A stretch of DNA of 64,000 bases from contig OZ245842.1 of the NCBI GenBank assembly GCA_965228895.1, positions 704,001 to 768,000 of the forward strand, read 5' to 3'. Source of the stretch: Alphaproteobacteria bacterium. Its GTDB lineage: Bacteria; Pseudomonadota; Alphaproteobacteria; SP197. Below, one piece after another: positions 26,378 through 49,882 of this stretch. The translations under genes and the position numbers were made by a program. Each line of letters opens with the position of its first letter. Position 1 is the stretch's first letter. The notes below the pieces were generated by a model. The model saw nothing but the letters and a program-made list of their open reading frames with translations, did no database searches and was not told where the DNA came from.

Positions 26378-27442
26378 ATGTTCAAGCGTTTTGAGGGTAA
26401 GAGTTTTGCCGAGCGGCATGGTGCCGGCCGGCTGAGCACCATGGTGGCCGGCATCGCGGTCGGCGCTGCCATCGGTATTGGCACCTTGATGACGGCGCCG
26501 GCTCAGGCTGAAGAAGGTGTGATCCGTTGCGCCTATCCCTATTGGTTCGGCTTCGCGCCGGTGCCGGTGGCGAGCGCCATGGGCTATTTCGAAGAGGAAG
26601 GCCTTGAGGTCACGACCGTCTTCGATAACGACCGCGCGAACGTCTATCCCGGTCTCGAAATCGGCGATCTCGACTGCACCATGCGCACGATCGGCGAGCA
26701 TATGTCGCGCCCGCTGGCCGAAGACTCGAACTTCGTCGTCATCGGCCTGATCGATATCTCCGTTGGCGCCGACGGTGTTGTCGCCGCACCCGATGTCAAC
26801 GATGTTACCGACCTGATCGGCCGCACCTTCGCCGGCGAGATCAACCACCCGGGCACATTGATGACAGCGCACGCGTTGAGGGAAGCCGGTCACAGCTTTT
26901 CCGACGTCAACGTCCGACTGATCAACACCGATGACAGCCCGGCCGTCTTCGAAGACGACGATGTCGCCGCCGTCGCGACGTGGGAACCGATGATGAGCGA
27001 CATTGTCGCCAACACGTCGCGCGAGGGTTCGAAGATCCTGCTGTCGTCGGCAGACTTCAACGGCCTGATCACCGACGTCGTCATCGTCAACAAGGAAGAC
27101 TATGAGGCCGACCGCGAGAAGTACGCGGCGTTCATGCGCGGCATCTATCGCGCCGTCGATCTCTACAACAACGACCCCGAGAAGTTCCTCGAGGTCGCGG
27201 CGCCGGCCTATGAGGTCACGCCCGAGCAGATGAAGGTCGATATTGAAGGCGTCTACTACACCTCCTACGAGGATGCGGTCGAATACTTCGGCACCGATGG
27301 TCAGCCGGCCAAGCTTGCCGACGTGGTCAACGCGCTGAACGATATTCAGGTCGAGCTCGACCTGATGGACGCGCCGATCTCGATGGAGGCCATGTCGGAC
27401 CCGAGCCTGACCGACGGTCTGTTCGACGGCAAGACGCGCTAA
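26378..27442 (+). CDS. ABC transporter substrate-binding protein, NitT/TauT family
   Basis: Signal peptide; YWFGFAP, DISVGADG, ATWEP, LITDV; very acidic. Confidence 0.88.
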   Translation: MFKRFEGKSFAERHGAGRLSTMVAGIAVGAAIGIGTLMTAPAQAEEGVIRCAYPYWFGFAPVPVASAMGYFEEEGLEVTTVFDNDRANVYPGLEIGDLDCTMRTIGEHMSRPLAEDSNFVVIGLIDISVGADGVVAAPDVNDVTDLIGRTFAGEINHPGTLMTAHALREAGHSFSDVNVRLINTDDSPAVFEDDDVAAVATWEPMMSDIVANTSREGSKILLSSADFNGLITDVVIVNKEDYEADREKYAAFMRGIYRAVDLYNNDPEKFLEVAAPAYEVTPEQMKVDIEGVYYTSYEDAVEYFGTDGQPAKLADVVNALNDIQVELDLMDAPISMEAMSDPSLTDGLFDGKTR

Positions 27443-27474
27443 CCGTCTACCGTCTGACCTTTTTGTGTATCCCA

Positions 27475-27509
27475 CACCGGCTTTGCGGGCTTAGCCTGCA
27501 AAGCCGGTG
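27475..27509 (+). terminator. Stem-loop after the SBP gene (mRNA-stabilising or partial terminator)
   Basis: CACCGGCTTTGCGGGC-TTA-GCCTGCAAAGCCGGTG, 16-bp stem with one G-U; no U-tract downstream. Confidence 0.55.
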
Positions 27510-27574
27510 GCGGGCGCCTGTCATGTGTGTCCGGCTCCGGCGCACCGCGCGCTCCATCAAGGAGGACTGACCTG

Positions 27575-28363
27575 ATGGCCCTCAGATCGGCGCTGTTCGC
27601 CTATCGCGGCGAATCGTCGCCCCGTACCGACCTCGTCCTGGCCGTGGTCGCCTTGGCTGGTTTCTTTATCGTCTGGTACTTGATCTCAGTTTTCGAGATC
27701 GTGTCGCAGCGGTTCCTGCCGACACCCATCGACGTTGTGGTGGCGCTATGGACCATGCTGACGGTCAACAACTTCATCGAGGATATCTGGATCTCGGTGG
27801 CGCGGGTTTGGGGCGCGTTCGCGCTCTCGGTCGTGTTTGCCGTGCCGATCGGCATCTGGATGAGCAGCTACCGCATCGTCGGCACGCTGATCGAGCCGGT
27901 TGTCGACTTTATCCGCTATCTACCCGTGCCGGCCCTCGTACCGCTCTTGATTATCTGGTTCGGCATTGGCGAAGCCTCGAAGATCGCGGTGTTGTTTATG
28001 GGGACGTTCTTTCAGCTTGTTTTGCTGATCGCCGACGATGCCAAGCGCGTGCCTAAGGAATTCATCGAGATCGGCTATACCCTTGGCGGCAAGCCACGCA
28101 ACATCACCAAGGACATCGTGTTCCGGTCGATGATGCCGAACCTGGTCGACAACCTCAGGATCACACTGGGTTGGTGTTGGACCTGGATCATCGTTGCCGA
28201 GATCGTCGCCGCCAACAGCGGCATTGGGCACGCTATCTGGTCGATGCGCCGGTTCCTCAAGACGCCGGAAGTGATGGCCGGTATTCTGACCATCGGCATT
28301 ATCGGCCTGGTGACCGATCAGTTGATCCGTGTCGCCCATCGCCGTTACTTCCGGTACCTCTAG
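27575..28363 (+). CDS. ABC permease, NitT/TauT family
   Basis: AGGAGG RBS; RYLPVPALVPL, WFGIGE, AEIVAANSGIG. Confidence 0.9.
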   Translation: MALRSALFAYRGESSPRTDLVLAVVALAGFFIVWYLISVFEIVSQRFLPTPIDVVVALWTMLTVNNFIEDIWISVARVWGAFALSVVFAVPIGIWMSSYRIVGTLIEPVVDFIRYLPVPALVPLLIIWFGIGEASKIAVLFMGTFFQLVLLIADDAKRVPKEFIEIGYTLGGKPRNITKDIVFRSMMPNLVDNLRITLGWCWTWIIVAEIVAANSGIGHAIWSMRRFLKTPEVMAGILTIGIIGLVTDQLIRVAHRRYFRYL

Positions 28364-28372
28364 GAGCAGGCG

Positions 28373-29185
28373 ATGGTCGATCCATCAAGATTTGTCGATG
28401 TCCGTGGTGTCTCGAAAGTGTTTGAGACGGGCGGGCGTGTCGTCGAACCGATTGCCGTCATCAACGACGTCTCGATGACCTTGGCAGAGGGTGAATTCGT
28501 CGTCTATCTCGGCCCTTCCGGCTGCGGCAAGACGACCCTGATGCGCATCGTCGGCGGCCTGGAGACTGCGTCATCCGGCGAGATCTGGCTGGCTGACGAG
28601 AAGGTCACCGGGCCTGATCGGCGCAAGGGCATGGTGTTTCAGACCTACACCTCGTTTCCCTGGCTGACGGTCTCGGAAAACATTCACTTCGGCACCAAGT
28701 ACCGCACCGACATTTCGCCGAAGCAGAAGCAAGAGATTTCCGACCACTATCTCGACCTCGTCGGCCTCAACAAGTTCGCCGACTTTCACGTCAACCGCAT
28801 CTCGGGCGGTATGCGCCAACGTGTCGCTATTGCGCGAACCCTTGCCGCTGAGCCCGACATTTTGCTGATGGACGAACCGTTTGGCGCCCTTGATGCACAG
28901 ACCCGTGAACATCTGCAGGTCCAGATGCGCGAGATCTCGCGGATCGAGAACAAGACGGTGATTTTTGTGACCCACGATGTCGAGGAGGCGATCTTTCTTG
29001 CTGATCGCATCGTGATCTTTTCCGCGCGCCCGGCGACGATTGTCGAAGAAATCGACGTGACCCAAAAGCTGCCGGTTCACCGCGACATGACGACCAAGGA
29101 GACAGAGGACTTCTTCCACCTGCGCAACCATGTGCGTGACGTCATGCGACACCTGGAGACCGATGACGATGCGGTGGACGTGTAG
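28373..29185 (+). CDS. ABC ATP-binding protein, NitT/TauT family
   Basis: GPSGCGKT, ISGGMRQR, MDEPFGALD, VTHD. Confidence 0.93.
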   Translation: MVDPSRFVDVRGVSKVFETGGRVVEPIAVINDVSMTLAEGEFVVYLGPSGCGKTTLMRIVGGLETASSGEIWLADEKVTGPDRRKGMVFQTYTSFPWLTVSENIHFGTKYRTDISPKQKQEISDHYLDLVGLNKFADFHVNRISGGMRQRVAIARTLAAEPDILLMDEPFGALDAQTREHLQVQMREISRIENKTVIFVTHDVEEAIFLADRIVIFSARPATIVEEIDVTQKLPVHRDMTTKETEDFFHLRNHVRDVMRHLETDDDAVDV

Positions 29186-29971
29186 GTGACCGGCATGGCG
29201 ACCATGGGACTTGAAGGCAAAAAGGTGGTGATCACCGGCGGTAGCCGCGGGGTGGGATTGGGGATTGCTGAAGGGTTCGCCGGCGTTGGCTGTGACCTCA
29301 CGCTGATCGCCCTGGATGACGAGGTCGAGGACGTCGCCGCCCAACTGGCGGACAAGTACGGTTGCCCCGTGCGCGGCTTTCTATGCGACATCACCGATCG
29401 CGGCAGCTTGGACGCGGTGGCGCAGCAGATCGACCGGGTCGATGTGCTCGTCAACAACGCTGGCCTAGAACTCATCACGCCAATTGAAGACGAAGACCCG
29501 GATATCGAAGAGACGTTCCGACGCATCGTCGACATCAACGTCATGGGGACCTACTACGTCACACGGCGTTGCCTGCCCAAGATGCCGGATGGTGGGCGCA
29601 TCATCCTGACCGCATCGCAGTGGGCGAAGTCGGCGGTCGGCGAGTTCAGCGCCTATTGCGCGTCAAAACACGCCAACCTGGGTTTCATGCGCAGCCTGGC
29701 CAAGGAACTGGGGCCGCGCGGCATCAGCGTCAACGCGGTTTGCCCAGGCTGGGTCCGCACCATCGCCAGCATGCGTTCGCTCGCTGCCATGGCGCGCCGC
29801 GTCGACCGCGCCGAGAGCGACTTGTTGGATGAGATTGTCGCGGCCCAGGCGTTCCCCGGATTGATGGAGCCGCGTGAGATGGCCGACACCTATCTGTTCC
29901 TGGCTTCCGATGCGGCGCGCAACATTACCGGCCAAGCCATTACCGTCGACCGTGGTGACATATTGGTCTGA
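29186..29971 (+). CDS. Short-chain dehydrogenase/reductase (start may be 29195 or 29204)
   Basis: TGGSRGVG, NNAG, YCASK, VCPGWVRT. Confidence 0.9.
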   Translation: MTGMATMGLEGKKVVITGGSRGVGLGIAEGFAGVGCDLTLIALDDEVEDVAAQLADKYGCPVRGFLCDITDRGSLDAVAQQIDRVDVLVNNAGLELITPIEDEDPDIEETFRRIVDINVMGTYYVTRRCLPKMPDGGRIILTASQWAKSAVGEFSAYCASKHANLGFMRSLAKELGPRGISVNAVCPGWVRTIASMRSLAAMARRVDRAESDLLDEIVAAQAFPGLMEPREMADTYLFLASDAARNITGQAITVDRGDILV

Positions 29972-29985
29972 AACGCGCGGACCCC

Positions 29986-31347
29986 TCAGGGTCCAATCAC
30001 GACCAGCTTCAAGTCGTTCACGTTGGTGCCGGTAGCACCGGTCATAATCAGCGATCCCATACCGTCCAGAGCCGGCGTGGCGTTGTGGCGCCGCAGCACG
30101 TCGTGGAGGTCGATGCCGGCCGCTGTTGCGCGTGCCATGCTCGATCCATCAACCAGACCGCCCGCTGCATCCGAAGGGCCGTCGGAACCGTCGGTATCGA
30201 TCCCCAACAGGGCGACATCATCCAGACCATCCAGATGGATAGCACCGGCTACGGCGAATTCCTGGTTGGGACCGCCTACACCGTGTGCGCCGTCGATCGT
30301 GACAGTGGTCTCGCCACCGCCGATCAGAACGCAAGGCGCAGGGATGGGATGACCGCTCAGCCGGACCTCATGCGCCATGGCTGCCATGGTTCGTCCGAGC
30401 TCACGGCTCTCACCCTCGAACGCCGTCGATAACAGGAGCGGCTGAAAGCCAAGCGCCTCGGCGCGCCGGGCGGCGGCGTGGCATGCGGCATCGGCGGCGA
30501 CGAGGACATGATCAATCCGATCGAGATGGGCGAGGTCGGCGTCTTTCGGTGTCTCCTGCGAAGGTCCGGCATGTTTCAGGTAATCGGCGATGGCGGCTGG
30601 AATGATCGGCCACAGGTTGTACTTGTCGAGCGTATGCCGTGCATCGTCGAAGGTTGCGGTATCGGGGACCGTCGGGTCGGTGATGTAGTCGAGAGCATCG
30701 CCGATAACGTCGGACACCGTCACGTTGATCAGGATGGTCCCAGCAGGCAACGCAGCAGCCAGCCGCCCCCCTTTCACGGTACTGACGTGTTTGCGCACAG
30801 CATTGATTTCGCGAATGTTCGCACCGCAGGTCAGCAGTTTGCGATTAAGCGCCTTCTTGTCGTCAAGCGAAACGCCGGAAACAGGCGAGACGAACAAAGC
30901 CGAGCTACCGCCCGTCACCGCAGCGATGACCACATCGCCCGGCCGCACGGCCTTCAGCAGATCGACGGTGCGCCCGGCTCCTTCCAATGACATCTCGTCG
31001 GGCACCGGGTGGGCGGCGTGCATGAGTTCGATATGCGTCAGACGACCTTGTTGCCCGGTCTTGCAGACGACAAGACCTGCGTCAACGCGTGCACCGAGCA
31101 TGTCATCAAGGACCTTGGCAATAGGAAACGTCGCCTTGCCGGTACCGATGACAAAGACCCGTCGCCCATCCAGATCAATGGCGCGTTGGCCGATCTTCAG
31201 GACGTTACCGTCAAGGGAGAGAAGGCTGGCGGCCGCTGCGCCAGGATCGCAAGCTGAGAGTGCGCTTTCGACGAGATCGAGCGCGACCTCACGCGCCGGA
31301 TTGGCGGCCTGAAGCAGTGCCTCGCGATTGGTAACGATCGGCTTCAT
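29986..31347 (-). CDS. Type-2 glycerate kinase family protein (DUF4147/MOFRL, TtuD-like)
   Basis: GTGKA, AAHPVPD, GGSSAL, INAVRKH, SDVIGD, GGETTV, TDGSDG, TGTNVND. Confidence 0.9.
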   Translation of the reverse strand: MKPIVTNREALLQAANPAREVALDLVESALSACDPGAAAASLLSLDGNVLKIGQRAIDLDGRRVFVIGTGKATFPIAKVLDDMLGARVDAGLVVCKTGQQGRLTHIELMHAAHPVPDEMSLEGAGRTVDLLKAVRPGDVVIAAVTGGSSALFVSPVSGVSLDDKKALNRKLLTCGANIREINAVRKHVSTVKGGRLAAALPAGTILINVTVSDVIGDALDYITDPTVPDTATFDDARHTLDKYNLWPIIPAAIADYLKHAGPSQETPKDADLAHLDRIDHVLVAADAACHAAARRAEALGFQPLLLSTAFEGESRELGRTMAAMAHEVRLSGHPIPAPCVLIGGGETTVTIDGAHGVGGPNQEFAVAGAIHLDGLDDVALLGIDTDGSDGPSDAAGGLVDGSSMARATAAGIDLHDVLRRHNATPALDGMGSLIMTGATGTNVNDLKLVVIGP

Positions 31348-31380
31348 GATGCATCGACCCGTCGTGCGGTCGACGTGGCG

Positions 31381-32664
31381 TCAGCCAGGCCGGTGAAAAT
31401 TGTGTCCGGCATAGGCGGCTGTCGCGCCGAGTTCCTCTTCGATCAGCAGCAGGCGGTTGTGTTTGGCGGTCCGTTCGCCGCGCACAGGCATGCCGGTCTT
31501 GATCTGGCCGCTGTTGAGTGCGACCACGAGGTCGGAAATGAGCGGATCTTCGGTCTCGCCGGACCGTTCGGAGACCTGCACGCCATAGCCATGGCGGTAG
31601 GCGAAGGCGGCGGCATCGAGCGCTTCGCTCAATGAGCCGATCTGGTTGACCTTGAACAGCATGGCGTTCGCGGCGCCGATGGCGACACCCATGCGCAGCC
31701 GTTCGACATTGGTGACGAACAAATCGTCGCCGACAATCTGCGTCTGCGGCAGTTCGTTGGTGACCTTGACGAACCCGTCGAGGTCGTCTTCATCGAGCGG
31801 GTCCTCCATGGAACCCAACGGATACTTGTCGGCGACTTGTTTATAGAGATCGATCAGGGCGTCACGGTCATAGTCGGTGTCGTCGAGAACGTAGACATCG
31901 CGCTCCTTGTCGAACCAATGGGTCGATGCGCAGTCGAGGCCGTAGACGATGTCTTCGCCGAAACCTGGCCGGTAGCCTGCCGCTTCGCAGGCGCGCTGCA
32001 TGAACTCGAAGGGCTCCCAGATGCCGCGCATGGGCGTGGCGAACCCGCCTTCATCGCCGGTGTTGGTGGCGAGAATGCCGTACTTCTCAATGACGAGATC
32101 GCGCAGCGCCTCGTTGATCTCCGTGGTGATCTGAAGCGCGTGAGCGTAGCTCTCCGCGCCCACGGGCATGATGATGAATTCTTGGATCTCCAGGTCGTTG
32201 GCGGTCAGCTTGCCGCCGTTCAGACAATTCATCAGCGGTACCGGCAGCACCCGGCAAAGCGGGTTGATATAGCGATAGAGCGGCAGGCCGGAGACCTGTG
32301 CGCCGGCGCGCGCGACTGCCAGAGAGACACCCAGGATCGCGTTGGCGCCCAGGCGGTTCTTGTTCGGTGTGCCGTCGAGTTCGCACATCACCTGGTCGAT
32401 CCGCCGCTGTTCGGTGACGTCCATGCCCAGGACCGCTTCGGCGATCTCGCCGGTGACATTGGAGACGGCCTGGCGAACGCCCTGGCCGAAGTAGCGGTTA
32501 CCGCCATCGTGCAGCACGCGGGCTTCGTGGGTGCCGGTCGAGCGGCCCTGGGGCACATCGGCGCGCCCGGCCATGATGCCGTCGACCCAGACATCGACCT
32601 GGACCGTCGGCCAGCCCCGGCAATCGATGATTTCGCGGGCTCGGATGTCTGAGATTTCGTTCAT
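31381..32664 (-). CDS. eno: Enolase paralog with altered substrate-binding residues
   Basis: Full enolase fold (REIID, GANAILGVS, QEF, GDEGG, GDDL, KVNQIG, QIKTG) but PQGRST, NGGKL and SERSGE deviate; symbol denotes family only. Confidence 0.85.
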   Translation of the reverse strand: MNEISDIRAREIIDCRGWPTVQVDVWVDGIMAGRADVPQGRSTGTHEARVLHDGGNRYFGQGVRQAVSNVTGEIAEAVLGMDVTEQRRIDQVMCELDGTPNKNRLGANAILGVSLAVARAGAQVSGLPLYRYINPLCRVLPVPLMNCLNGGKLTANDLEIQEFIIMPVGAESYAHALQITTEINEALRDLVIEKYGILATNTGDEGGFATPMRGIWEPFEFMQRACEAAGYRPGFGEDIVYGLDCASTHWFDKERDVYVLDDTDYDRDALIDLYKQVADKYPLGSMEDPLDEDDLDGFVKVTNELPQTQIVGDDLFVTNVERLRMGVAIGAANAMLFKVNQIGSLSEALDAAAFAYRHGYGVQVSERSGETEDPLISDLVVALNSGQIKTGMPVRGERTAKHNRLLLIEEELGATAAYAGHNFHRPG

Positions 32665-32750
32665 GGCGTGTCTTTCCGATCCGGTATGGACAAACCAGCG
32701 GTAGCGCAGGTTCTGGGAAACGTTGGCTCGTGGCCAGGACGGTCGTTGAT

Positions 32751-33812: not shown

Positions 33813-33837
33813 CTGGGAAACGCTGGGGGTCCATGCC

Positions 33838-39906: not shown

Positions 39907-40018
39907 GAACACCCCCTTTGTCAATTCACTATGCCAAGGCTACGCGGGCAGGTAAGGCCACACGTTTAGGGCCGAAGCACCACCCAGATCAAGCGATCTG
40001 GCGAAGTTCAGCCGGTGT

Positions 40019-42876: not shown

Positions 42877-43760
42877 GTGACGTTCCCTCCGAGCTTGATA
42901 ATCGAATCGGTGAGAGCGCGCTTGACCATGACCTTGATCATGGCGCGGCGATAATCAGCGCTGGCGCGTACATCGGAGATCGGCTTGGCATCGGCCGCGG
43001 CCAGTTCGCCGGCCTTGACCAGCAAGCCGCCATCGATGTCGGAGAGGTTCGCACCCTCAAGCACCGCCTCCGCGGCGGCGGAGCGAATGATGATGGGCGC
43101 CACGGCACCGAGGGCGATACGCGTCTTCACGATATCTGATTGCGCGTCGGCCCAAACGGCGGTCGATGCGTTGACCAGCGCAATATCGACGACGGTCCGG
43201 TCGATGCGCCGATAAGATGCCTCGACGCGCTGGTCGGCGGGCAGGGGTATGACGATCTCCGAGAGCAAATCGCCGTTGGCGACGACCGTGTGGTTCACGC
43301 CCTCGAAAAAATCCTCCATGGCGACCCGGCGTTCACCCTCGGATCCAAAAATGACGGCCTCGGCATCCAAAGCGACAAAGGCCGGCGACAGATCGGCTGC
43401 CGGCGATGCGTTGCACAGATTGCCGCCGACCGTCGCGATCGATCGGGTCTGCGGCGTGCACATCAGCTTGGTGATGTCGCTTAATGTCTTGAGGTGAGGG
43501 TGATGGTCAGCGGCGTTTTCGAGCGCTGCGAGCGTCGCCATCGCGCCGACACGAATCGAATTGTCGCCGACCTCGATAAACCGCAGTTCGTCGAGGAAGG
43601 TGAGGTCGATGCAGTGGTCGAGCGACACCTCCTCGCGTTGCCACAGCAGGGTCATGTCGGTGCCACCGGCCCAGTAACGCGCGCCGTCACCCAGACTGGC
43701 GCGCATGGCCACGGCCTCCTGTAGCGAGGACGGGCGCGAATAGTCGAACTGAGAACGCAT
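42873..43760 (-). CDS. Xanthine dehydrogenase family FAD-binding subunit
   Basis: Start MRSQFDY; AGGTD, ATVGGNLCNASPAAD, PISDVRASADYR. Confidence 0.92.
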   Translation of the reverse strand: MRSQFDYSRPSSLQEAVAMRASLGDGARYWAGGTDMTLLWQREEVSLDHCIDLTFLDELRFIEVGDNSIRVGAMATLAALENAADHHPHLKTLSDITKLMCTPQTRSIATVGGNLCNASPAADLSPAFVALDAEAVIFGSEGERRVAMEDFFEGVNHTVVANGDLLSEIVIPLPADQRVEASYRRIDRTVVDIALVNASTAVWADAQSDIVKTRIALGAVAPIIIRSAAAEAVLEGANLSDIDGGLLVKAGELAAADAKPISDVRASADYRRAMIKVMVKRALTDSIIKLGGNVT

Positions 43761-43791
43761 TATCTTTCTCCCACACCGTCTCAACAGGAGA

Positions 43792-43833
43792 CGGAAAAAG
43801 GGTGCGGGCAAGGGCTGGGCCCCTTGCCCGCAC
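43792..43833 (-). terminator. Intrinsic terminator-like hairpin between the SBP gene and Mo-enzyme genes
   Basis: 13-bp stem GTGCGGGCAAGGG/CCCTTGCCCGCAC followed by a T5 run on the minus strand. Confidence 0.6.
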
Positions 43834-43845
43834 AGGGTGGTCAAC

Positions 43846-44997
43846 TCAAGGGCCGACGCGGCCGATCCACTTGTTGGAACTATACTCCTGGTCGTATCCC
43901 TCGGAGCCCAGCCATTCGATGATGCTGTTGTCGATACCGTCGGCGGCTGACACACGTTCATCCATAACGCCGGCCTCCGAATAGACATCGGCGAACAGCT
44001 CCCACGTGTCGGCGAGATAGCCGGCCTCGCAGTCAGCCTTGTCACCGACCATCTGCCCCCAGCCGCTGGCGGATGCCGGCGGCGCCGGCGCGCCTTCAGG
44101 AATGCTGGCGCACAGGGGTTCGCCGCCTTCTAGGCCGACGGCGCCCATGTTCTGGTTGATGTTCAGCATGACCGCGCCGTACTGGGTCAGGCGCACGTCC
44201 TCGACGGGCCAATCCAGACCTGCGGCGACGATCTCGTTGCCTTCATCGGGGTTTTCCTTCCACCAGTTGACGGCCTCGAACCAGGCGCGAATGACTTCGC
44301 GGGCGGTGTCCGGGTTCGCCTCGAGCCATTCCTGATTGCAGGCGATCGAGTCGGAGATCAGGCCGCGTTCCCACGTCTTGTCGGTGAAGCTGGATTTCAG
44401 CATGTGCGAATCCTCGCGCTCCAATGATTGGGTCGAGAACGGGATCCACGTGACGTCGACGTCCAGTGCGCCGCTGGCGAACGCCGCCGTCGACTCCTGG
44501 GGCAACATGATCGTGTGATTGACCTCGTCGAACGGAATACCCGCCCGTTTCAGGGTCAACAGCATCCACATGTGGTTCAAGAAGCCGTAATCAGCGGCAA
44601 ACGTGCGGCCGCGCAGGTCCGCTTCGGTCTGGATGTCATTGGAGACAACCATCTGGTCGAGGCCATAGGACATCAGCGGCACGGCGACATGCTTCACCGG
44701 CACGGCCGACGAGGCGGTAACGACCGTGTTGTCCATGGTTGTCATGATGCACTGGATCGAGTTGTTCGAGAGGCCGGCATTGCGCGCGGTCGTATCCTCG
44801 ATGATCTTGACATCGACATTGATGCCGTCGGCCAGACCCTTTTCCTTGACGATGAACCAGGGGCCGTAGACCGAGACGGAAATGATGGAGACGGTGAAGT
44901 CTTCCTCGGCATGAGGTGATGCCGTGGGGATCGTGCTGCCTGCAACGGCGAGGCAGAACGCGAGCGCCGCGGTTGGCAGCGAAAGCAAACTTCTCAT
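43846..44997 (-). CDS. ABC substrate-binding protein, NitT/TauT family
   Basis: Signal peptide; SYGLDQ, TWIPF, LISD; AAGGAGGAGG RBS. Confidence 0.85.
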   Translation of the reverse strand: MRSLLSLPTAALAFCLAVAGSTIPTASPHAEEDFTVSIISVSVYGPWFIVKEKGLADGINVDVKIIEDTTARNAGLSNNSIQCIMTTMDNTVVTASSAVPVKHVAVPLMSYGLDQMVVSNDIQTEADLRGRTFAADYGFLNHMWMLLTLKRAGIPFDEVNHTIMLPQESTAAFASGALDVDVTWIPFSTQSLEREDSHMLKSSFTDKTWERGLISDSIACNQEWLEANPDTAREVIRAWFEAVNWWKENPDEGNEIVAAGLDWPVEDVRLTQYGAVMLNINQNMGAVGLEGGEPLCASIPEGAPAPPASASGWGQMVGDKADCEAGYLADTWELFADVYSEAGVMDERVSAADGIDNSIIEWLGSEGYDQEYSSNKWIGRVGP

Positions 44998-45063: not shown

Positions 45064-45873
45064 TCATTGCGCCTGAATCTCTTCGCGCATCCAGGCGAAC
45101 AGCTGGCGTTCGGTTTCGATGTAGCCGGGCTCCGCCAAGAGCTCTTCTTTCTTGGCAAAGCGCCGGCCTTGCTTGAACTCCAGCAGTATGTCCTGCTTGA
45201 TCCGGCCGGGGTTGCGCGTGAAGAAGACGATTCGATCGGCGAGATAGATCGCCTCCTGGATGTCGTGGGTCACCGCGATCACCGTCTTTTTCTCAGCCTC
45301 GATGATCTCGATCATCATTTCCTGCATTTCCCAGCGGACCTGTGCGTCGAGCGCGCCGAACGGCTCATCCATCAACAGCACCGTCGGGTTCTGCGCCAGT
45401 GTGCGGGCGATTGCGACGCGCTGTTTCATGCCGCCGGAGAGTTCGCTGGGATAGGACTTGGCCGCGTGGCCCAGGTGCACTTCCTCGAGCAACTGCTTGG
45501 CCTTTGCCTGTCGTTCTTTCTTCGGCACGCCCAAGATCTTCATGCCGTATTCGATGTTGCCGAGCGCGGTGAGCCATGGAAACGACGTATAGGCCTGGAA
45601 CACCATGCCGCGGTCGGGGCCGGGCCCGATAATCGGCTGGTCGTAGACCGTGATAGCGCCTTCCGTCGGCAGCTCGAGGCCGGCGATCATGCGCAGCATA
45701 GTCGTCTTGCCGCAGCCCGAAGGCCCGATAAAGGCGGTCACTTGGCCTTCCGGCAGGTCGAGCGTGATGTCGTCGACCGCGGTGAAGCTGCCGCCCAGAT
45801 AGCGCCGGGTGACGCCGGTAGCGCGAATGGCGACATTGTCGGTTGTTGACGTGGTGCTTGCGGGCTGCGCCAT
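45064..45873 (-). CDS. ABC ATP-binding protein, NitT/TauT family
   Basis: GPSGCGKT, LSGGMKQR, MDEPFGALD. Confidence 0.93.
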   Translation of the reverse strand: MAQPASTTSTTDNVAIRATGVTRRYLGGSFTAVDDITLDLPEGQVTAFIGPSGCGKTTMLRMIAGLELPTEGAITVYDQPIIGPGPDRGMVFQAYTSFPWLTALGNIEYGMKILGVPKKERQAKAKQLLEEVHLGHAAKSYPSELSGGMKQRVAIARTLAQNPTVLLMDEPFGALDAQVRWEMQEMMIEIIEAEKKTVIAVTHDIQEAIYLADRIVFFTRNPGRIKQDILLEFKQGRRFAKKEELLAEPGYIETERQLFAWMREEIQAQ

Positions 45874-45876
45874 GAC

Positions 45877-46785
45877 TCAACCCCGTCGCTTGCGGTTCCA
45901 GGGAAAGAAGTAGTGGGCGGCGATGCGGAAGCTGATATCGGTCAGCACGCCCAATATGCCAATCGTCAGAATGCCCGCCATGATGATGTCGACTTTCAAG
46001 AACCGCCCCGCGCGCATCATCACCGCGCCGATGCCGTCCTGGGCCGCGACAATCTCCGCGATCACAAGATAGGTCCAGCTCACCGCGATCATGTTGCGCA
46101 TGGAATCGACAATCGCCGGCGAGGCCGCGCGTACGACGACGCCCATGACGATCTGGCGCCGTGTTGCGCCCATGGTGAGCGCCGCCTCGACCAGCGCTTT
46201 CTCGACCGCCTCGGTGTTGTCCAGAATGAGGGCGACCAGAAAGAAGATGACGCCCAGAAACAGCAGCGCGAGCTTTTGCGTATCGGTCGGTCCGAACCAG
46301 ACCAGCAGCAGCGGGATGAACGAGGCCGCCGGCAAGTAGCGTGCGCCGGAAAAGATCGGGTTTATCAGCGCGCGCATGTTCGAAAAGCAGCCCATGAAGA
46401 CGCCAAGCGGAATGGCGAGCAGACAGGCGGCAAAGAAGCTTGCGAAAACGCGCGCGACCGAGATGCCGACATCGGCCATGTAGTCTTTCTCGGTGATCAG
46501 CATGACGAGCGTCGAGATGACGTGCTGCGGTGACGGCAGGAAGCGCCGGCTTTCTTCCGGTGTCAGGTAATGACCGGCTTCCCACAGCAGGAAGAACGCG
46601 GCGCCGCCGATCAGCCCGTAGATGGCCGTCTGGCGGGAGTTGACGGGGGTCAGAAGTCTAAGCGCCTGACGTCGTCTGCCGCCGGCAGGCCCATCCTTGC
46701 GCTGCGTGCCCGTGGGAACGGTGCCCGCTCTAGCGTTCTTTGCCGCGTCCACCATGCGCCCCTTGCCCCGCGTCGTCGTTGGCAT
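45877..46785 (-). CDS. ABC permease, NitT/TauT family (start uncertain, 46785 or 46755)
   Basis: FLPSP, RYLPAASFIPL, EAALTMGA, AEIVAAQDGIG. Confidence 0.88.
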   Translation of the reverse strand: MPTTTRGKGRMVDAAKNARAGTVPTGTQRKDGPAGGRRRQALRLLTPVNSRQTAIYGLIGGAAFFLLWEAGHYLTPEESRRFLPSPQHVISTLVMLITEKDYMADVGISVARVFASFFAACLLAIPLGVFMGCFSNMRALINPIFSGARYLPAASFIPLLLVWFGPTDTQKLALLFLGVIFFLVALILDNTEAVEKALVEAALTMGATRRQIVMGVVVRAASPAIVDSMRNMIAVSWTYLVIAEIVAAQDGIGAVMMRAGRFLKVDIIMAGILTIGILGVLTDISFRIAAHYFFPWNRKRRG

Positions 46786-47034
46786 CGTCTTCACGACGCC
46801 TTGGGGCAAAGACTGAACCTGCAATAACGTTCGACGAATCGCTGATTCGCTACCTATTCATTCAGCTTGGGAAATGTATTGGCTGCCCGCCAGGAATTGA
46901 AGTTACGGCCTTTGCGTGGCTTTGGCCGCCGGTTATGGCATTGCTGGACGTTCCGTAATGTACCTGGACAGCGCTCAACTCTGTCACCCGCTGTGTTGGG
47001 CTTGAGCGCTTCAGAACCAATTGACCTGTTCACT

Positions 47035-47128: not shown

Positions 47129-48058
47129 ATGGCCTTTCGCATCAGCGATGTCGATATTCGCCAACTTCATGTTTTTCGAGCTGTTGTCGAATGCCGCGGT
47201 TTCACGAGCGCGCAGTCGGTGCTGAACATCGGTCAATCGACCATCAGCAATCAAATGGCGCAGCTCGAGACGCGTCTGGGTGTTCGCCTTTGCGAACGCG
47301 GTCGGACCGGATTCGAGCTCACGCCGAAAGGCCGGCGTGTTTACGAGGAAACGCTGAAGCTGTTCCGGGCGCACGAGGATTTCCAGAACATCACGTCAGA
47401 ACTGAAAGGACGCTTGAGCGGCTATCTCAACATCGCGCTGATCGACAACGTGGCGACCGATCCGGAATGCCCGATCGTGCGAGCCCTCAACCTCTTCAAC
47501 AGCCGGGACCATGAGGTCAGCGTGCGCATGGAGATCATGCCGCCCGGCGATATCGAACGCGCGGTGCTGGATCTCGACATCGATGTTGCGATCGGGACCT
47601 TTCACCACCGGGTACCCGGACTCGACTATCGCGACATCTATATCGAAGAGAACGCACTTTTGTGCGGATATCAAAACCCGATCTTTTCGATGACCGACGA
47701 TGCCGAGATTCACGAGGCCGTGCGCACGGCGCGCAAGGTCACGCGCTCCTATCTCGATAAACACGACATCGCATCACTGGGTGAAGACGAGGGCGCGCCG
47801 TTCGCGGTCGTGCAGCATCTGGAAGCCGCAGCGATCCTCATTCTGGGCGGCGGTCATATCGGCTTTTTGCCGCGCCATCTCGCCCAGCTATGGGTGTCGC
47901 GCAACGAGATGAAACCGGTCTTGCCCTTGGAGTACGTCTACAAGTCCGTCTTCTCGATCGTGACCCGCAAGGCGCCCAGGAAGTCGATGATCCTGAAATC
48001 CTTTTTGGCCGACCTCACCGAAGCCTCGCAACTCGGTGACCAGCTTCGGGTTGCTTAG
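47129..48058 (+). CDS. LysR family regulator (paralog of 33838-34779)
   Basis: DIRQLHVFRAVVECRGFTSAQSVLNIGQSTIS...LCERGRTGF. Confidence 0.9.
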   Translation: MAFRISDVDIRQLHVFRAVVECRGFTSAQSVLNIGQSTISNQMAQLETRLGVRLCERGRTGFELTPKGRRVYEETLKLFRAHEDFQNITSELKGRLSGYLNIALIDNVATDPECPIVRALNLFNSRDHEVSVRMEIMPPGDIERAVLDLDIDVAIGTFHHRVPGLDYRDIYIEENALLCGYQNPIFSMTDDAEIHEAVRTARKVTRSYLDKHDIASLGEDEGAPFAVVQHLEAAAILILGGGHIGFLPRHLAQLWVSRNEMKPVLPLEYVYKSVFSIVTRKAPRKSMILKSFLADLTEASQLGDQLRVA

Positions 48059-48104
48059 TCCGAGGGCGTAGCGTCACAACAAGACCAGCAAGGTGGGGGT
48101 ACGC

Positions 48105-48956
48105 ATGGCCGAGCAAGGCGGATTCAAGGCGGGGTTGTCCTATTACGACTTCGGGCGCACGACGTTCCATGCGTCGCAGTTCGACCAACGATTTTCGTAT
48201 TGTCTCTACGTACCGCTCGACTATGAGGAGAACGGCTGCAAGACCTATCGCCTGGCGGTGACGATTCATGGAACCGGGCGCAATGCGGCGGGCTACCGCG
48301 ACAGCTTGTCGGACTTTGCCGACGCCAACGACTGCATCATCCTGGCGCCGCTTTTCCCTGCCGGTATCGCCAAACCAGGTGATCTCTCGGGTTACAAACT
48401 GATTGGCTCTCACGGCATTCGCTACGATCACGTGCTGCTCGCTATGATCGACGAAATCGCTGGCAAGTACCGTGTCGATGCCGAGCGCTTCTTGCTCTAC
48501 GGCTTTTCCGGCGGCGGTCATTTCAACCATCGGTTTTTCTATCTCCACCCCGAGCGGCTGCTCGGGGCCTCGATCGGTGCGCCCGGCGTTGTGACCCTGC
48601 TCGATCAAACCCGTGATTGGTGGGTCGGCGTCAGAAATCTCGAGGCGGTGTTCGGCAAGGCCCTGGACATAGACCGCATGCGCGAGGTCGCGGTCCAGAT
48701 GGTGATCGGCGATGAAGACACCGACACCTGGGAGATCACGATTCGACCCGGAAGCTCGTGGTGGATGGAGGAGGCCAACATCGCAGGCTCGACCCGGATC
48801 GACCGCATCAACGCACTGCGCGAAAGCTACGAGGACGAAGGGATCGCCGTCAGGCTGGATACCGTTCCTGGTACCGCCCACGAGCCCGATGCGGTGATTG
48901 AGCCGGTGAAACAGTTCTTTGCCGACGTGCTGCTCGGCCGCTCGGTGCGGCTCTGA
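48105..48956 (+). CDS. Alpha/beta hydrolase (poly-aspartate hydrolase / depolymerase-like)
   Basis: IHGTGR, LAPLFP, YGFSGGG, GDED, PGTAH. Confidence 0.8.
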   Translation: MAEQGGFKAGLSYYDFGRTTFHASQFDQRFSYCLYVPLDYEENGCKTYRLAVTIHGTGRNAAGYRDSLSDFADANDCIILAPLFPAGIAKPGDLSGYKLIGSHGIRYDHVLLAMIDEIAGKYRVDAERFLLYGFSGGGHFNHRFFYLHPERLLGASIGAPGVVTLLDQTRDWWVGVRNLEAVFGKALDIDRMREVAVQMVIGDEDTDTWEITIRPGSSWWMEEANIAGSTRIDRINALRESYEDEGIAVRLDTVPGTAHEPDAVIEPVKQFFADVLLGRSVRL

Positions 48957-48979
48957 CGTCTGGCCACAGGCGTGTTGCG

Positions 48980-49882
48980 TTACTCGGCCGCCCGTTCGAC
49001 CACGACGGGTCCGTCGTAATAGGGCAGGCGCTCGACGCGAGGTGTGTAGCGGCCCGACCCGATTTCGCTCCTGACATGGGCGGCAATATCATCCATGCGC
49101 GCGAACCAAACGTCGCCCTTGTCCTGCATATAAGTGATCAGACCTTCGACCGCGCGCAGCCGCGCCAGGCGCCCGGAAACGAACGGATGCCAGACGGCGA
49201 TCCACAGGCCCCCATAGTCCCACGCGGCGTCGAACTCCTCACGGAACCCGGCTATCGCCTCGGACGGTGAGCGAATCGACATCATGTAGTCGAGATCGCT
49301 CATGTGGACGTAGGGCGGCCAGTCGTCGAGCCCCCAATGGGTCGGCAGTTCGACGAGATCACCGCGATCGGACTGGATGAGATAAGGGATATCGTCGCCC
49401 ATCAAAGAGGCGTCGTAGGTGAAGCCTTCCTCCAGGAGCAGATCGAGCGTGTGGTCGGAGAAGTTATAGAGCGGCGCCCGGAAACCGCGCGGTCGCTCAC
49501 CCGTATGACGTTCGATGATCTCGATACCGCGGCGCAACCAATGCTGCTCTTCGGCGCGCGACAACTCGTTGGGGTGTTCGTGGATGTAACCGTGATGGGC
49601 GACTTCGTGGCCATCCTTGACCATCGCCGCGACGGCGTCGGGGTAACGTTCGATGCACCAAGCGGGTACATAGAACGTCTGCTTCAACTCATGACGCCGG
49701 TAAAGGTCAAGGATGCGCGGCATGGCGACGGAAGGGCCGTATCGCAGTTGGGAAAGCGCGGAGATCCTGCGATGCGCATCGCTCGGATGGGCCAGGTGCA
49801 GGATGCTGTCGGCATCCATGTCGAAGGTGAATGCGACCGCGCAACGCGCGCCGTTCGGCCATGAAACTCCGTTTTCAATCAT
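48980..49882 (-). CDS. Polysaccharide deacetylase family (CE4, H. pylori PgdA / cyclic-imide hydrolase-like)
   Basis: WPNGARCAVAFTFDMD, HGYIHE, GFRAP, DDWP, WHPFVSGR. Confidence 0.87.
   Translation of the reverse strand: MIENGVSWPNGARCAVAFTFDMDADSILHLAHPSDAHRRISALSQLRYGPSVAMPRILDLYRRHELKQTFYVPAWCIERYPDAVAAMVKDGHEVAHHGYIHEHPNELSRAEEQHWLRRGIEIIERHTGERPRGFRAPLYNFSDHTLDLLLEEGFTYDASLMGDDIPYLIQSDRGDLVELPTHWGLDDWPPYVHMSDLDYMMSIRSPSEAIAGFREEFDAAWDYGGLWIAVWHPFVSGRLARLRAVEGLITYMQDKGDVWFARMDDIAAHVRSEIGSGRYTPRVERLPYYDGPVVVERAAE

Follow-up and report, generated by a model that had tools for sequence, protein, structure and literature searches.

Gene content and layout of the block

The block spans positions 26,312-49,882 of the window, the whole 64,000-nt stretch of DNA that was analysed. 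ORF calls and matches to Pfam and NCBIfam recover all 22 genes listed in an earlier note on this DNA, in the gene classes named there and at essentially the same coordinates (Table 1). The left module comprises 26,312-38,934 and a PuuE-like hydrolase at 48,980-49,882, which is assigned to it because of synteny in a distant member of the Arenicellales (locus L001). The right module contains the Mo hydroxylase, importer 2 and ureohydrolase 2. For larE, larB and the FAD subunit, the longest ORF begins within the gene upstream, and the real start probably lies farther downstream.

Table 1. Genes of the block, in window positions; L001 is the syntenic Arenicellales locus.
Feature	Position	Strand	Evidence
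SBP 1, NitT/TauT-type ABC importer	26312..27442	+	Pfam NMT1 62 bits; NCBIfam SsuA_fam 86 bits, below cut-off; L001 homolog 61% identical
ABC permease 1	27527..28363	+	Pfam BPD_transp_1; TauC/SaoP-like; L001 homolog 64% identical
ABC ATPase 1	28373..29185	+	Pfam ABC_tran; L001 homolog 59% identical
SDR, end of importer-1 operon (0-nt gap)	29186..29971	+	Pfam adh_short_C2 173 bits; L001 homolog 59% identical
DUF4147+MOFRL kinase, glycerate 2-kinase family	29986..31347	-	Pfam DUF4147 217 bits, MOFRL 111 bits; PDB 1x3l 324 bits; L001 homolog 54% identical
Rewired enolase-family protein	31381..32664	-	TIGR01060 504 bits; L001 homolog 77% identical
Ureohydrolase 1, 3-guanidinopropionase-like; heads ureohydrolase-enolase-kinase operon	32751..33707	-	PDB 3nip 409 bits; L001 homolog 76% identical
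LysR regulator 1, divergent from ureohydrolase 1	33838..34779	+	NCBIfam LysR models; L001 homolog 52% identical
Distant LarA-family protein, NPN-dependent isomerase, NCBIfam group 22	34910..36172	+	NF052515 452 bits (cut-off 400); Pfam Lar_N 29.6 bits; L001 homolog 63% identical
LarC, nickel insertion, CTP-dependent cyclometallase	36215..37429	+	Pfam Ni_insertion 314 bits; TIGR00299, NF052512 over cut-off
LarE, sulfur transferase	37335..38270	+	TIGR00268 225 bits (cut-off 150), match from ORF residue 47; start probably near 37470
LarB, NaAD carboxylase/hydrolase	38140..38934	+	NF033503 244 bits (cut-off 175), match from residue 50; start probably near 38290
Ureohydrolase 2, agmatinase family; end of Mo-hydroxylase operon	38941..39924	-	Pfam Arginase 276 bits; top PDB match 1wog agmatinase 195 bits
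Mo hydroxylase large (molybdopterin) subunit	40019..42367	-	Pfam Ald_Xan_dh_C, MoCoBD_1, MoCoBD_2; top NCBIfam XdhA 428 bits (cut-off 780)
Mo hydroxylase 2x[2Fe-2S] subunit	42385..42876	-	Pfam Fer2, Fer2_2
Mo hydroxylase FAD subunit	42873..44045	-	Pfam FAD_binding_5, CO_deh_flav_C from residue 99; start probably near 43750
SBP 2, NitT/TauT type	43846..44997	-	Pfam NMT1, NMT1_2; SsuA_fam 92 bits; 27% identical to SBP 1
ABC ATPase 2	45064..45873	-	Pfam ABC_tran; 50% identical to ATPase 1
ABC permease 2	45877..46824	-	Pfam BPD_transp_1; 38% identical to permease 1
LysR regulator 2, divergent from importer-2/Mo-hydroxylase operon	47129..48058	+	Pfam HTH_1, LysR_substrate
Alpha/beta hydrolase	48093..48956	+	NCBIfam PHB-depolymerase-type esterase, E 5e-8 (weak); no Pfam match at 1e-6; Atlas clusters named alpha/beta hydrolase, score 0.99
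Polysaccharide-deacetylase/PuuE-allantoinase-like hydrolase	48980..49882	-	Pfam Polysacc_deac_1 71 bits; PDB 3rxz 231 bits; PuuE 3cl6 86 bits

The modules share paralogous components. Two NitT/TauT importers point inward as had been described, importer 1 on the + strand and importer 2 on the - strand, and both binding proteins match NMT1/SsuA-type models; the two LysR regulators are likewise paralogs (38% identity over 297 aa, E 1e-65), as are the two ureohydrolases (34%). The term "island" does not apply in the sense of a mobile element: tRNA genes and flanking repeats were searched for around the block and none was found, and G+C is 0.59-0.65 within the block vs 0.56-0.66 outside. The window flanks hold assorted catabolic genes.

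The LarA-like protein is predicted to have the LarA fold (AF2 model, pLDDT 85.9; top Foldseek PDB matches all of the LarA family), while in a sequence alignment with LarA its NPN-binding residues are not alignable. Directly downstream lie larC, larE and larB, all three over their NCBIfam cut-offs. Both ureohydrolases match Pfam Arginase (E <= 1e-82) with the metal motifs GGDH, DAHxD and DVDxxDP intact. Ureohydrolase 1 matches the solved P. aeruginosa 3-guanidinopropionase (3nip; E 1e-121) at 409 bits vs 293 bits for the guanidinobutyrase 3nio, and gaps of 86 and 33 nt separate the genes of its run with the enolase and the kinase. The nearest NCBIfam model of the SDR is 3-hydroxybutyrate dehydrogenase (172 bits vs a cut-off of 258). 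By Pfam, neither a urease nor a gene handling the amine remaining after urea release is found in the window.

Neighbourhoods of the LarA-like gene

Eighty loci with LarA homologs were compared, 18 in the LarA clade of the window and 62 outside. Around its LarA homolog, L001 shares synteny with the window over ten genes (SBP 1, permease, ATPase, SDR, deacetylase-family hydrolase, kinase, enolase, ureohydrolase 1, LysR 1 and the LarA-like gene), across a class-level distance. The PuuE-like hydrolase homolog lies there between the SDR and the kinase, with 60% identity over 120 aligned residues (49-168); the SDR and hydrolase frames are disrupted there, either by decay or through an assembly error. 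Beyond the window, the guanidino version was found in this one distant genome only.

Kinase and enolase adjoin the LarA homolog at eight of the 80 loci (L001, L003, L004, L005, L007, L011, L020, L054). All eight fall within the one clade (18 tree rows, SH-aLRT 98), so that the trio is found at 8/18 in-clade loci vs 0/62 outside, and at 0/60 tree rows outside. L040, at a contig end, has the kinase without the enolase, and neither gene is found in the examined DNA of the in-clade loci L006, L009, L010, L014 and L023. The trio occurs across phyla, in Desulfobacterota and Acidobacteriota, where methylamine methyltransferases stand alongside in the ureohydrolase's stead; MttB-family methyltransferases are present at 8/18 in-clade loci vs 0/62 outside, and class-III aminotransferases at the trio loci L004, L020 and L054. 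Across these neighbourhoods, the nitrogen-removing enzymes vary around a common core. With methyltransferases, aminotransferases and a D-amino-acid dehydrogenase in the ureohydrolase's place, the substrate suggested is of a broader kind, an N-substituted hydroxy acid in general. At L014 and L026, the LarA homolog is accompanied by an IlvD-type dihydroxy-acid dehydratase and not by kinase and enolase, which speaks for a leaving group that is a beta-hydroxyl rather than an amine.

The earlier note had tied the NPN gene to guanidino breakdown across the block and had named recurrence of its partners elsewhere as evidence that would support this. The tie is supported for the LarA-like gene, ureohydrolase 1, kinase and enolase, through the L001 synteny and the recurrence of the trio, with the ureohydrolase recurring at L001 only. 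It is not supported for the right module and the alpha/beta hydrolase: homologs of the Mo subunits, SBP 2, ureohydrolase 2 and the alpha/beta hydrolase are found at 0/80 loci, and all of them are absent within 10 kb at L001 despite the synteny of the left module. More distant LarA-family members lie in sugar-acid contexts, with an MR_MLE enzyme and an SDR, with galactarate/altronate dehydratase and AcnX, or, on H. volcanii pHV3, with Gfo/Idh/MocA and GH28. The published context of group 22, whose numbering may differ from that of NCBIfam, lists SDR, dihydroxy-acid dehydratase, TRAP transporter and sugar kinase (PMC7583248 Table S1).

The rewired enolase and its kinase

The description of the enolase as "rewired" is borne out by five motifs that differ from canonical S. 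meliloti enolase (DCRGWPT/DSRGNPT, VPQGRSTG/VPSGASTG, NGGKLTAN/NGGAHADN, ASTHWF/ASTEFF and SERSGET/SHRSGET). The protein carries W18, Q39, R41, L153, H249, W250 and E366 for canonical N, S, A, H, E, F and H; both active-site histidines are swapped (L153, E366), together with five more motif residues (15, 18, 22, 39, 41). The alignment retains the Mg ligands, the Lys base and the Glu residues. Among the best 120 relatives, each at least 73% identical to the window protein, SERSGET is kept in 119, NGGKLTAN in 118 and DCRGWPT in 119; canonical enolases are about 50% identical. At the sequence level, the rewired enolase is a conserved subfamily, apparently under selection.

The kinase matches PDB 2b8n ("glycerate kinase, putative") at 271 bits and stays well under the NCBIfam glycerate 2-kinase equivalog cut-offs (213 vs 550). 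It adjoins the rewired enolase or lies one gene off in all six contexts inspected (the window, L001, L004, L007, a P. caribensis plasmid and a Salmonella plasmid). On the Salmonella plasmid, pyruvate kinase and ACS-family MFS transporter genes accompany the pair; on the P. caribensis plasmid, the pair lies near a DadA-like oxidoreductase, RidA and a D-2-hydroxyacid dehydrogenase, counted here with the nitrogen-removing variants, and near a GhrA-like reductase. No LarA homolog is annotated near the pair on either plasmid; therefore, the trio is not obligatory.

A candidate route and competing readings

The reading that we favour, with about even confidence in its parts taken jointly, is that the block consists of two paralogous LysR-controlled modules for guanidino compounds, with the nickel-pincer enzyme confined to the left one. 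The left module would act on an N-substituted 2-hydroxy acid, and the right module, as an operon of its own with importer 2, Mo hydroxylase and ureohydrolase 2, would serve a different N-rich substrate. In the order of steps that we infer, the compound taken up by the NitT/TauT importer would be a 2-hydroxy acid that carries a guanidino group and probably has three carbons, or else a precursor that masks this acid in cyclic or acylated form; the SDR and the PuuE-like hydrolase may prepare it. The 3-substituted three-carbon acid proposed earlier fits the 3-guanidinopropionase as nearest solved relative of ureohydrolase 1, which would release urea. The LarA-family enzyme, with cofactor from larC-larE-larB, would invert the C2 hydroxyl and might thereby make the acid stereo-uniform, and the MOFRL kinase would phosphorylate the 2-OH. 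The rewired enolase would then remove the beta-substituent to yield an enol phosphate (PEP or a PEP analogue), from which ATP would be regained and a 2-oxo acid formed.

An ordinary glycerate funnel would resemble the way in which the tartrate, allantoin and serine pathways end. In such a funnel, which we consider unlikely, the LarA homolog would be an L- to D-glycerate racemase, the MOFRL protein a true glycerate 2-kinase and the enolase paralog a 2-phosphoglycerate-to-PEP enzyme, with the ureohydrolase and importers mere neighbours. The kinase's family fits, and the enolase score over the TIGR01060 phosphopyruvate hydratase cut-off (504 vs 300) counts against an altered role. The Salmonella cluster resembles the Agrobacterium ttu operon in gene content, the GhrA-like reductase of P. 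caribensis is compatible with glycerate, and the IlvD-type variant suits a 2,3-dihydroxy acid. Among the published LarA homologs, some are highly active as glycerate racemases (PMC11770544). However, a spare enolase copy retained for flux only would be expected to remain canonical, whereas the changed histidines and motif residues are kept in 118-119 of the 120 best relatives; the kinase falls far below its equivalog cut-off, and ureohydrolase 1 shares an operon with enolase and kinase in both the window and L001.

The same low probability is given to a single pathway in which the whole 23.5-kb block handles one substrate, perhaps a cyclic guanidine, by Mo hydroxylase oxidation, hydrolase ring opening, the ureohydrolases, the LarA homolog, kinase and enolase to PEP; from the sequence, one pathway for the whole block is not proven. 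The genes are contiguous, regulators and importers are paralogous between modules, and the far-right PuuE-like hydrolase has its homolog inside the L001 left module, so that the two block ends would be functionally tied. NMT1-type binding proteins handle pyrimidines, and 3-guanidinopropionate would formally correspond to a ring-opened dihydro-2-aminopyrimidinone. Large-subunit and LarA homologs also appear to share contigs, judged by matching sizes (165,993 and 37,149), but only in the two nearest relatives, while large-subunit orthologs (63-85% identity) are widespread over many lineages. The absence of right-module homologs from the compared loci stands against one pathway, and the Mo operon is self-sufficient because it has its own regulator, importer and ureohydrolase. 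Very unlikely, in our estimate, is a chance neighbourhood in a region rich in catabolic genes, where three or four operons would have nothing to do with one another, with the LarA homolog epimerising an unrelated sugar acid like other "group 22" members. The contexts of distant family members, the published group 22 context and the catabolic gene mix of the flanks are in line with it; the ten-gene synteny at L001 and the clade-specific trio are not.

The earlier note knew of no described pathway joining these genes, and a literature search agrees for the left module, yielding no description of a LarA-like/kinase/enolase/ureohydrolase module. Set beside the known pathways, the block looks like an undescribed route that would carry an N-bearing hydroxy acid into central metabolism.

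Layout of the block and its two modules

ORF listing with Pfam and NCBIfam scans recovered in the window the full gene inventory that the earlier note had drawn up for a single-pathway catabolic island. Strands and gaps assign these genes to five transcription units, a to e (see table), which form a left module (importer 1, an SDR, ureohydrolase 1, a rewired enolase, a MOFRL kinase, a LarA-like gene and larC-larE-larB) and a right module (importer 2, a three-subunit Mo hydroxylase and ureohydrolase 2). The paralogs of the two modules share 50% sequence identity for the ATPases, 38% for both the LysR regulators and the permeases, 34% for the ureohydrolases and 27% for the binding proteins; the set of regulator, importer and ureohydrolase is therefore present in the block as two paralogous copies. 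As a mobile element, the proposed island lacks the hallmarks: no tRNA genes or flanking repeats were found at the block, no transposase or integrase is present among the flank ORFs of the window, and the G+C content is like that of the flanks. Against the PDB, the binding proteins SBP1 and SBP2 gave weak SsuA/TauA matches alone, with no clue to their ligands. When 20 kb of the block was searched against plasmid DNA, only short matches were returned, the best of them (75%) to ureohydrolase 2, and the Leisingera homolog of this ureohydrolase is located in an unrelated gene context.

Coordinates of the transcription units and of further features in the window and in fetched loci (L numbers)
Locus	Feature	Coordinates	Strand	Remarks
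Window	Unit a: SBP1, permease, ATPase, SDR	26312-29971	+	gaps 84, 9, 0 nt
Window	Unit b: ureohydrolase 1, enolase, MOFRL kinase	33707-29986	-	gaps 86, 33 nt
Window	Unit c: LysR1	33838-34779	+	
Window	Unit c: LarA-like, larC, larE, larB	34910-38934	+	
Window	Unit d: permease 2, ATPase 2, SBP2, Mo hydroxylase FAD/FeS/Mo subunits, ureohydrolase 2	46824-38941	-	
Window	Unit e: LysR2	47129-48058	+	
Window	Unit e: alpha/beta hydrolase	48093-48956	+	
Window	Unit e: polysaccharide-deacetylase/PuuE-like hydrolase	48980-49882	-	
Window	ASCH-domain ORF	25101-25583	+	just left of block, before the next ORF
Window	Cyclase/arylformamidase-like ORF	25617-26150	+	short; first half of family profile only
Window	294-aa ORF	50069-50953	-	right of block; no Pfam/NCBIfam match
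Window	ORFs of 783, 429 and 422 aa	55833-60963	-	no Pfam/NCBIfam match
Window	Left flank: more LysR regulators, TauD-family dioxygenase, luciferase-like monooxygenase, aldehyde dehydrogenase, TPP enzyme	12849-14715; 1-8151	+ (12849-14715)	
L001 (Arenicellales)	SDR and PuuE-like hydrolase homologs	2659-4324		broken into several frames
L001 (Arenicellales)	Transposase, group-II-intron-type reverse transcriptase	12282-15511		downstream of LarA homolog
L003 (Holophagaceae)	LarA homolog	10001-11255		matches in two overlapping pieces
L004 (Desulfobacterota)	Split MttB-family gene	17030-18499	-	two ORFs, one frame
L054 (Desulfobacterota)	Split MttB-family gene	3111-4592	-	two ORFs, one frame
L020 (Desulfobacterota)	Split MtbB-type gene	1495-2883	-	two ORFs, one frame
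L014	LarA-homolog context with BCCT transporter, IclR regulator	10001-16296		
L082 (Haloferax volcanii pHV3)	LarA-like homolog, 38% identical	374393-375769		annotated 'DUF362 domain-containing protein'
L084 (Salmonella enterica serovar India plasmid NZ_CP022016.1)	Rewired-enolase cluster	463635-471609		enolase 78% identical; IS elements upstream

The left module is repeated gene for gene in the Arenicellales locus L001, with identities of 61% for the binding protein, 64% for the permease, 59% each for the ATPase and the SDR, 54% for the kinase, 77% for the enolase, 76% for the ureohydrolase, 52% for LysR and 63% for the LarA-like protein. In a lower-threshold search, a homolog of the PuuE-like hydrolase was detected between the SDR and kinase genes of L001 (60% over residues 49-168, with three smaller fragments in different frames); by this synteny, the window's own copy, at the right end of the block, belongs with the left module. 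Neither lar genes nor a Mo hydroxylase were found within 10 kb in L001. The broken frames in this locus reflect either assembly indels or decay.

The Mo hydroxylase of the right module has the Mo, FAD and 2x[2Fe-2S] subunit domain set in Pfam scans. Its large subunit stays below all named equivalogs (XdhA, PucD, PaoC, CoxL and HcrA), the best being XdhA with 428 bits for a cut-off of 780, and reaches 411 bits with the 4-hydroxybenzoyl-CoA reductase model (cut-off 995). Orthologs of this subunit are common: the best 120 relatives are 63-96% identical and come from sources named, among others, Rhodobacteraceae, Parvibaculaceae, Silicimonas, Arenicellales, Mycolicibacterium, Solirubrobacteraceae and Thermomicrobiales. 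Only two of these 120 (96% and 90% identical) are on contigs of the same sizes as contigs with LarA homologs (165,993 and 37,149 nt; LarA identities 89% and 80%); thus, as far as seen, both modules occur together in near relatives only. Among plasmid proteins, the best match to the large subunit was 34% identical, so this collection offers no close annotated context.

Catabolic genes are abundant throughout the window. The cyclase/arylformamidase-like ORF near the left end of the block is probably truncated, and some of the long matchless ORFs to the right may be spurious in G+C-rich DNA.

The rewired enolase, its kinase partner and the ureohydrolases

The window enolase is a full-length family member (Pfam Enolase_N and Enolase_C; TIGR01060, 504 bits for a cut-off of 300) and is about 51% identical to the housekeeping eno of S. 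meliloti. In an alignment of canonical and paralog sequences, columns D244, E287, D313, K338, K389, E162 and E205 are kept; following the yeast enolase literature, we take the first three to be the metal (Mg) ligands and the others to be the catalytic Lys/Glu residues. The protein differs at seven positions within conserved motifs, and the canonical DSRGNPTVE, VPSGASTG, NGGAHADN, ASTEFF and SHRSGET read DCRGWPTVQ, VPQGRSTG, NGGKLTAN, ASTHWF and SERSGET, respectively. Two active-site histidines, presumably equivalent to yeast enolase H159 and H373, are replaced by L153 and E366, which leaves the window protein without the canonical His pair. Moreover, Ser/Ala of the mobile loop are changed to Q39 and R41, an Asn to W18 and a Glu-Phe pair to H249-W250.

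These changes are shared by the best 120 relatives of the window enolase, none of which falls below 73% identity: SERSGET and DCRGWPT are each present in 119/120, NGGKLTAN in 118/120 and VPxGRSTG in about 112/120, and decay can therefore not account for them. For canonical enolases in plasmid or chromid records, identity to the window protein drops to about 50%. Judged from these alignments, the rewired enolase is a distinct subfamily inside enolase proper, which has probably diverged in function; its source annotation is 'enolase' or 'phosphopyruvate hydratase'. The enolase partners at two further LarA-homolog loci, L003 and L005, lack even the GDEGG motif (ARSYGYEAP) and carry a Gly at the histidine of SHRSGET.

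The kinase matches DUF4147 (217 bits) and MOFRL (111 bits) and, in the PDB, 1x3l (324 bits) and 2b8n (271 bits), and it falls below the glycerate 2-kinase equivalogs NF041176 (213 for a cut-off of 550) and NF040791 (159 for 670). It adjoins the rewired enolase or is one gene away in all six contexts compared, namely the window, L001, L004, L007 and two annotated plasmids (P. caribensis and Salmonella serovar India) that carry the subfamily at 76-78% identity. A LarA homolog is present in four of the six; in the two plasmid contexts none is annotated nearby. The P. caribensis context comprises GntR, the enolase, the DUF4147 kinase, Lrp, a PotD-like ABC system, a DadA-like FAD oxidoreductase, RidA, a GhrA-like D-2-hydroxyacid dehydrogenase, a class II aldolase and GNAT, and the Salmonella context comprises the enolase, an ACS-family MFS transporter, the DUF4147 kinase, Ddl, GntR, pyruvate kinase and GNAT. 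Searches of 5,426 E. coli genomes and of the plasmid set revealed no further copies of the Salmonella enolase-kinase cluster. Four additional contigs (9,792, 19,704, 20,150 and 101,241 nt), with the same sizes in both homolog lists, probably hold a LarA-clade gene together with a rewired enolase.

Both ureohydrolases have intact metal-binding motifs. Ureohydrolase 1 (Pfam Arginase, 298 bits; GGDH at 124, DAHTD at 149 and SFDVDGLDP at 238) matches the 3-guanidinopropionase of P. aeruginosa over its full length (3nip, 409 bits, E 1e-121), and more weakly guanidinobutyrase (3nio, 293 bits), proclavaminate amidinohydrolase (217 bits) and agmatinases (at most 205 bits, the score of the E. coli enzyme). 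By these matches, it is 3-guanidinopropionase-like. Ureohydrolase 2 is nearest to the agmatinase of D. radiodurans (195 bits).

The LarA-like protein and the neighbourhoods of its homologs

The LarA-like protein scores 452 bits with NCBIfam NF052515, 'nickel pincer cofactor-dependent isomerase, group 22' (cut-off 400), and 29.6 bits with Pfam Lar_N (cut-off 23.3). Its AlphaFold2 model (pLDDT 85.9) is predicted to have the two-domain fold of LarA: the 16 PDB matches that Foldseek lists at E < 1e-7 all belong to the LarA family (TM 0.43-0.55, identity 10-17%), and the top LarA-family structures with a Foldseek probability of 1.0 include 9eia, 9q3k, 9q3j, 4nar, 6d6z and 5huq. No solved LarA chain was found by sequence with either the protein alone or an 18-sequence family profile, and the candidate catalytic residues were therefore placed by spacing alone. 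H82, H148, K161 and H177, invariant in 18/18 aligned relatives, are spaced 66/13/16, as compared with 66/10/16 for H108, H174, K184 and H200 of LarA (Figure 3 legend, PMC7583248), a comparison of spacing only and not of residues aligned with LarA. Immediately downstream are larC, larE and larB, all scoring above their NCBIfam cut-offs; of the evidence collected, these genes argue most strongly for use of the NPN cofactor by the LarA-like protein. Together, the LarA-like protein is a putative NPN-dependent 2-hydroxy-acid racemase/epimerase. Assignment to the single-histidine LarA subfamily was rejected, since its solved structures are unmatched by sequence and its contexts are glycolytic in the available part of PMC12611868.

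More than 6,700 relatives of the LarA-like protein were found at E <= 1e-10 among the candidates scored. Matches came from 117 plasmid records, with haloarchaeal megaplasmid copies frequent among them; the one on Haloferax volcanii pHV3 is flanked by Gfo/Idh/MocA oxidoreductases and a GH28 glycoside hydrolase. With one genome scanned per species, 80 of 593 LarA-relative loci were examined as a sample, and 26 window proteins were compared with them by tblastn (E <= 1e-8, query coverage of 50% or more). A MOFRL kinase was detected in nine of the 80 loci and an enolase in eight (L001, L003, L004, L005, L007, L011, L020 and L054); the ninth kinase locus, L040, is a 3-kb contig with the kinase only. 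In the seven non-proteobacterial loci with the trio of LarA homolog, kinase and enolase, the three genes are adjacent and point in the same direction. Of the single pathway envisaged in the earlier note, the kinase and enolase recur beside LarA homologs, a ureohydrolase occurs only in L001 and a Mo enzyme in none of the 80 loci.

In a quick IQ-TREE maximum-likelihood tree of 78 rows, from which L003 (LarA gene in two pieces) and L039 and L044 (internal stops) were omitted, all trio-bearing LarA homologs fall into one 18-row clade (SH-aLRT 98), and the trio is found in none of the 60 rows outside. Within the clade, L002, L008, L012 and L026 are flanked on each side by under 4 kb of sequence, and neither kinase nor enolase was found in the available flanks of L006, L009, L010, L014 and L023. 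The two-piece match in L003 may be due to a frameshift. More distant LarA-family members have sugar-acid contexts, in agreement with the group 22 table in the available PMC7583248 supplement, where the group numbering is possibly not that of NCBIfam.

The clade is also associated with methyltransferases, and in Pfam and NCBIfam scans of its Desulfobacterota loci these and other enzymes take the place of the ureohydrolase. In a tblastn control over all loci, MttB homologs were found in 8/18 loci inside the clade and in 0/62 outside. MttB-family methyltransferases are encoded in the Desulfobacterota loci L004 and L054, one copy being split near residue 330, which we take to be the pyrrolysine position of MttB, and L020 has an MtbB-type dimethylamine methyltransferase that is also split. 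The break between the two ORFs presumably coincides with the expected site of an in-frame pyrrolysine amber codon, and these Desulfobacterota may read UAG as pyrrolysine. Further neighbours are a corrinoid protein in L054, MtaA-like URO-D family proteins in L007, L011 and L020, class-III aminotransferases in L004, L020 and L054, and Nik/Opp-type ABC systems in L007 and L020. In L014 and L026, kinase and enolase are replaced, and the LarA homolog is accompanied by an IlvD/Edd-type dehydratase and an MttB homolog; L010 contains a choline sulfatase, EamA, the LarA homolog and MttB.

Candidate chemistry and relation to known systems

The trio would fit a short reaction sequence, in which the 2-OH of a 2-hydroxy acid would be activated by phosphorylation, following the logic of glycerate 2-kinase, and an enolase-type C2 carbanion would expel the beta-substituent. 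The resulting enol phosphate would pay the ATP back, while the LarA homolog would supply the correct C2 configuration. A nitrogen-bearing core substrate is suggested by several observations: enzymes that remove N groups flank the core (ureohydrolase, methyltransferases, aminotransferases, or D-amino-acid dehydrogenase with RidA), the enolase pocket has exchanged a His for Glu and gained two Trp, and ureohydrolase 1 is guanidinopropionase-like. The preferred candidate class of substrate is a 3-N-substituted lactate; 3-guanidinolactate would be converted to isoserine.

What the enolase would expel is a separate matter. One tentative and rather unlikely proposal is that rewired enolase and MOFRL kinase form a C-N lyase system not recognised before: the 2-OH of 3-amino-, 3-guanidino- or 3-trimethylammonio-lactate would be phosphorylated and the N group expelled, yielding PEP plus ammonia, guanidine, or tri-/dimethylamine, and, with the new LarA clade, either enantiomer could be used. 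Such a deamination or amine release would be PLP-free, radical-free and ATP-neutral. It would explain why the trio lies beside a guanidinopropionase-like enzyme in Proteobacteria and, in Desulfobacterota, beside MttB-/MtbB-family genes, some of them split where an in-frame pyrrolysine stop would be expected. Against amine expulsion by the enolase, the IlvD-type variant in L014 and L026 and the retained E205 suggest that the leaving group is a hydroxyl, which would fit glycerate or a 4-N-substituted 2,3-dihydroxybutanoate.

Should the preferred reading of a 3-N-substituted lactate hold, the trio would provide a physiological role and a genomic marker for a large uncharacterised nickel-pincer clade, and a route by which carbon from guanidino compounds, and from methylated amines in anaerobes, reaches PEP. 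It would also place a functionally diverged subfamily within enolase proper, whose members are generally regarded as monofunctional and receive the automatic annotation 'phosphopyruvate hydratase'; the signature SERSGET plus NGGKLTAN would stop its mis-annotation as glycolytic enolase. The trio makes the function of LarA homologs outside the known racemase groups directly testable.

What is new is the combination of these genes, since each enzyme family by itself is known; the LarA clade has no characterised member. Full-text literature searches, whose scope did not extend to subscription journals and bioRxiv supplements, found no paper describing a LarA-like/kinase/enolase module, and the description of the gene combination as undescribed in the earlier note agrees with the literature searched. 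With the LarA superfamily, the window protein shares the predicted fold, the Lar_N and group 22 profile matches and the adjacent larC-larE-larB; its four invariant residues resemble those of LarA in spacing only. It differs in its identity of 10-17% to solved structures, and the characterised activities in the available parts of PMC7583248 and Urdiain-Arraiza et al. 2024 (PMC11770544) are all outside its clade. The genomic contexts in these parts have no enolase, MOFRL kinase or ureohydrolase: the available text of PMC11770544 gives no match for 'enolase', 'agmatinase', 'guanidin' or 'group 22', and the available PMC7583248 supplements give none for 'arginase', 'agmatinase', 'COG0010' or 'COG2379', their sole 'enolase' match being a COG4948 enolase-superfamily enzyme of another group.

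In comparison with canonical enolase, both domains, the metal ligands and the Lys/Glu columns are the same, whereas the two histidines and the loop and pocket residues are different. Tartrate (ttuD/ttuE), allantoin and serine-cycle pathways end in glycerate 2-kinase and enolase (and pyruvate kinase), and the ttu cluster has the tartrate dehydrogenase TtuC beside the kinase. The window shares with these end steps the kinase family and the proposed phosphorylation of a 2-OH followed by elimination to an enol phosphate, and the Salmonella plasmid version includes a pyruvate kinase as well, but the window's enolase active site is altered and its MOFRL kinase is below the equivalog cut-offs. Profile scans found no tartrate dehydrogenase, glyoxylate carboligase or hydroxypyruvate reductase in the window, and no isocitrate/isopropylmalate-dehydrogenase-family protein (TtuC type) is present among the scanned ORFs.

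Three-subunit Mo hydroxylases occur in N-heterocycle catabolism, as in xanthine, nicotinate and uracil dehydrogenases. The window enzyme has the same subunit set, and its operon also encodes an importer and a C-N hydrolase, but it reaches no equivalog cut-off; we know of no described pathway that pairs a Mo hydroxylase with an agmatinase-family ureohydrolase. The 3-guanidinopropionase gene pair of P. aeruginosa presumably consists of GpuA and the LysR regulator GpuR and, to our knowledge, the GpuA system involves neither a NitT/TauT importer nor an NPN enzyme. The full-length match to 3nip, the divergent LysR gene adjoining ureohydrolase 1 and the metal motifs are shared with this system, whereas ureohydrolase 1 of the window heads an operon with the rewired enolase and the MOFRL kinase.
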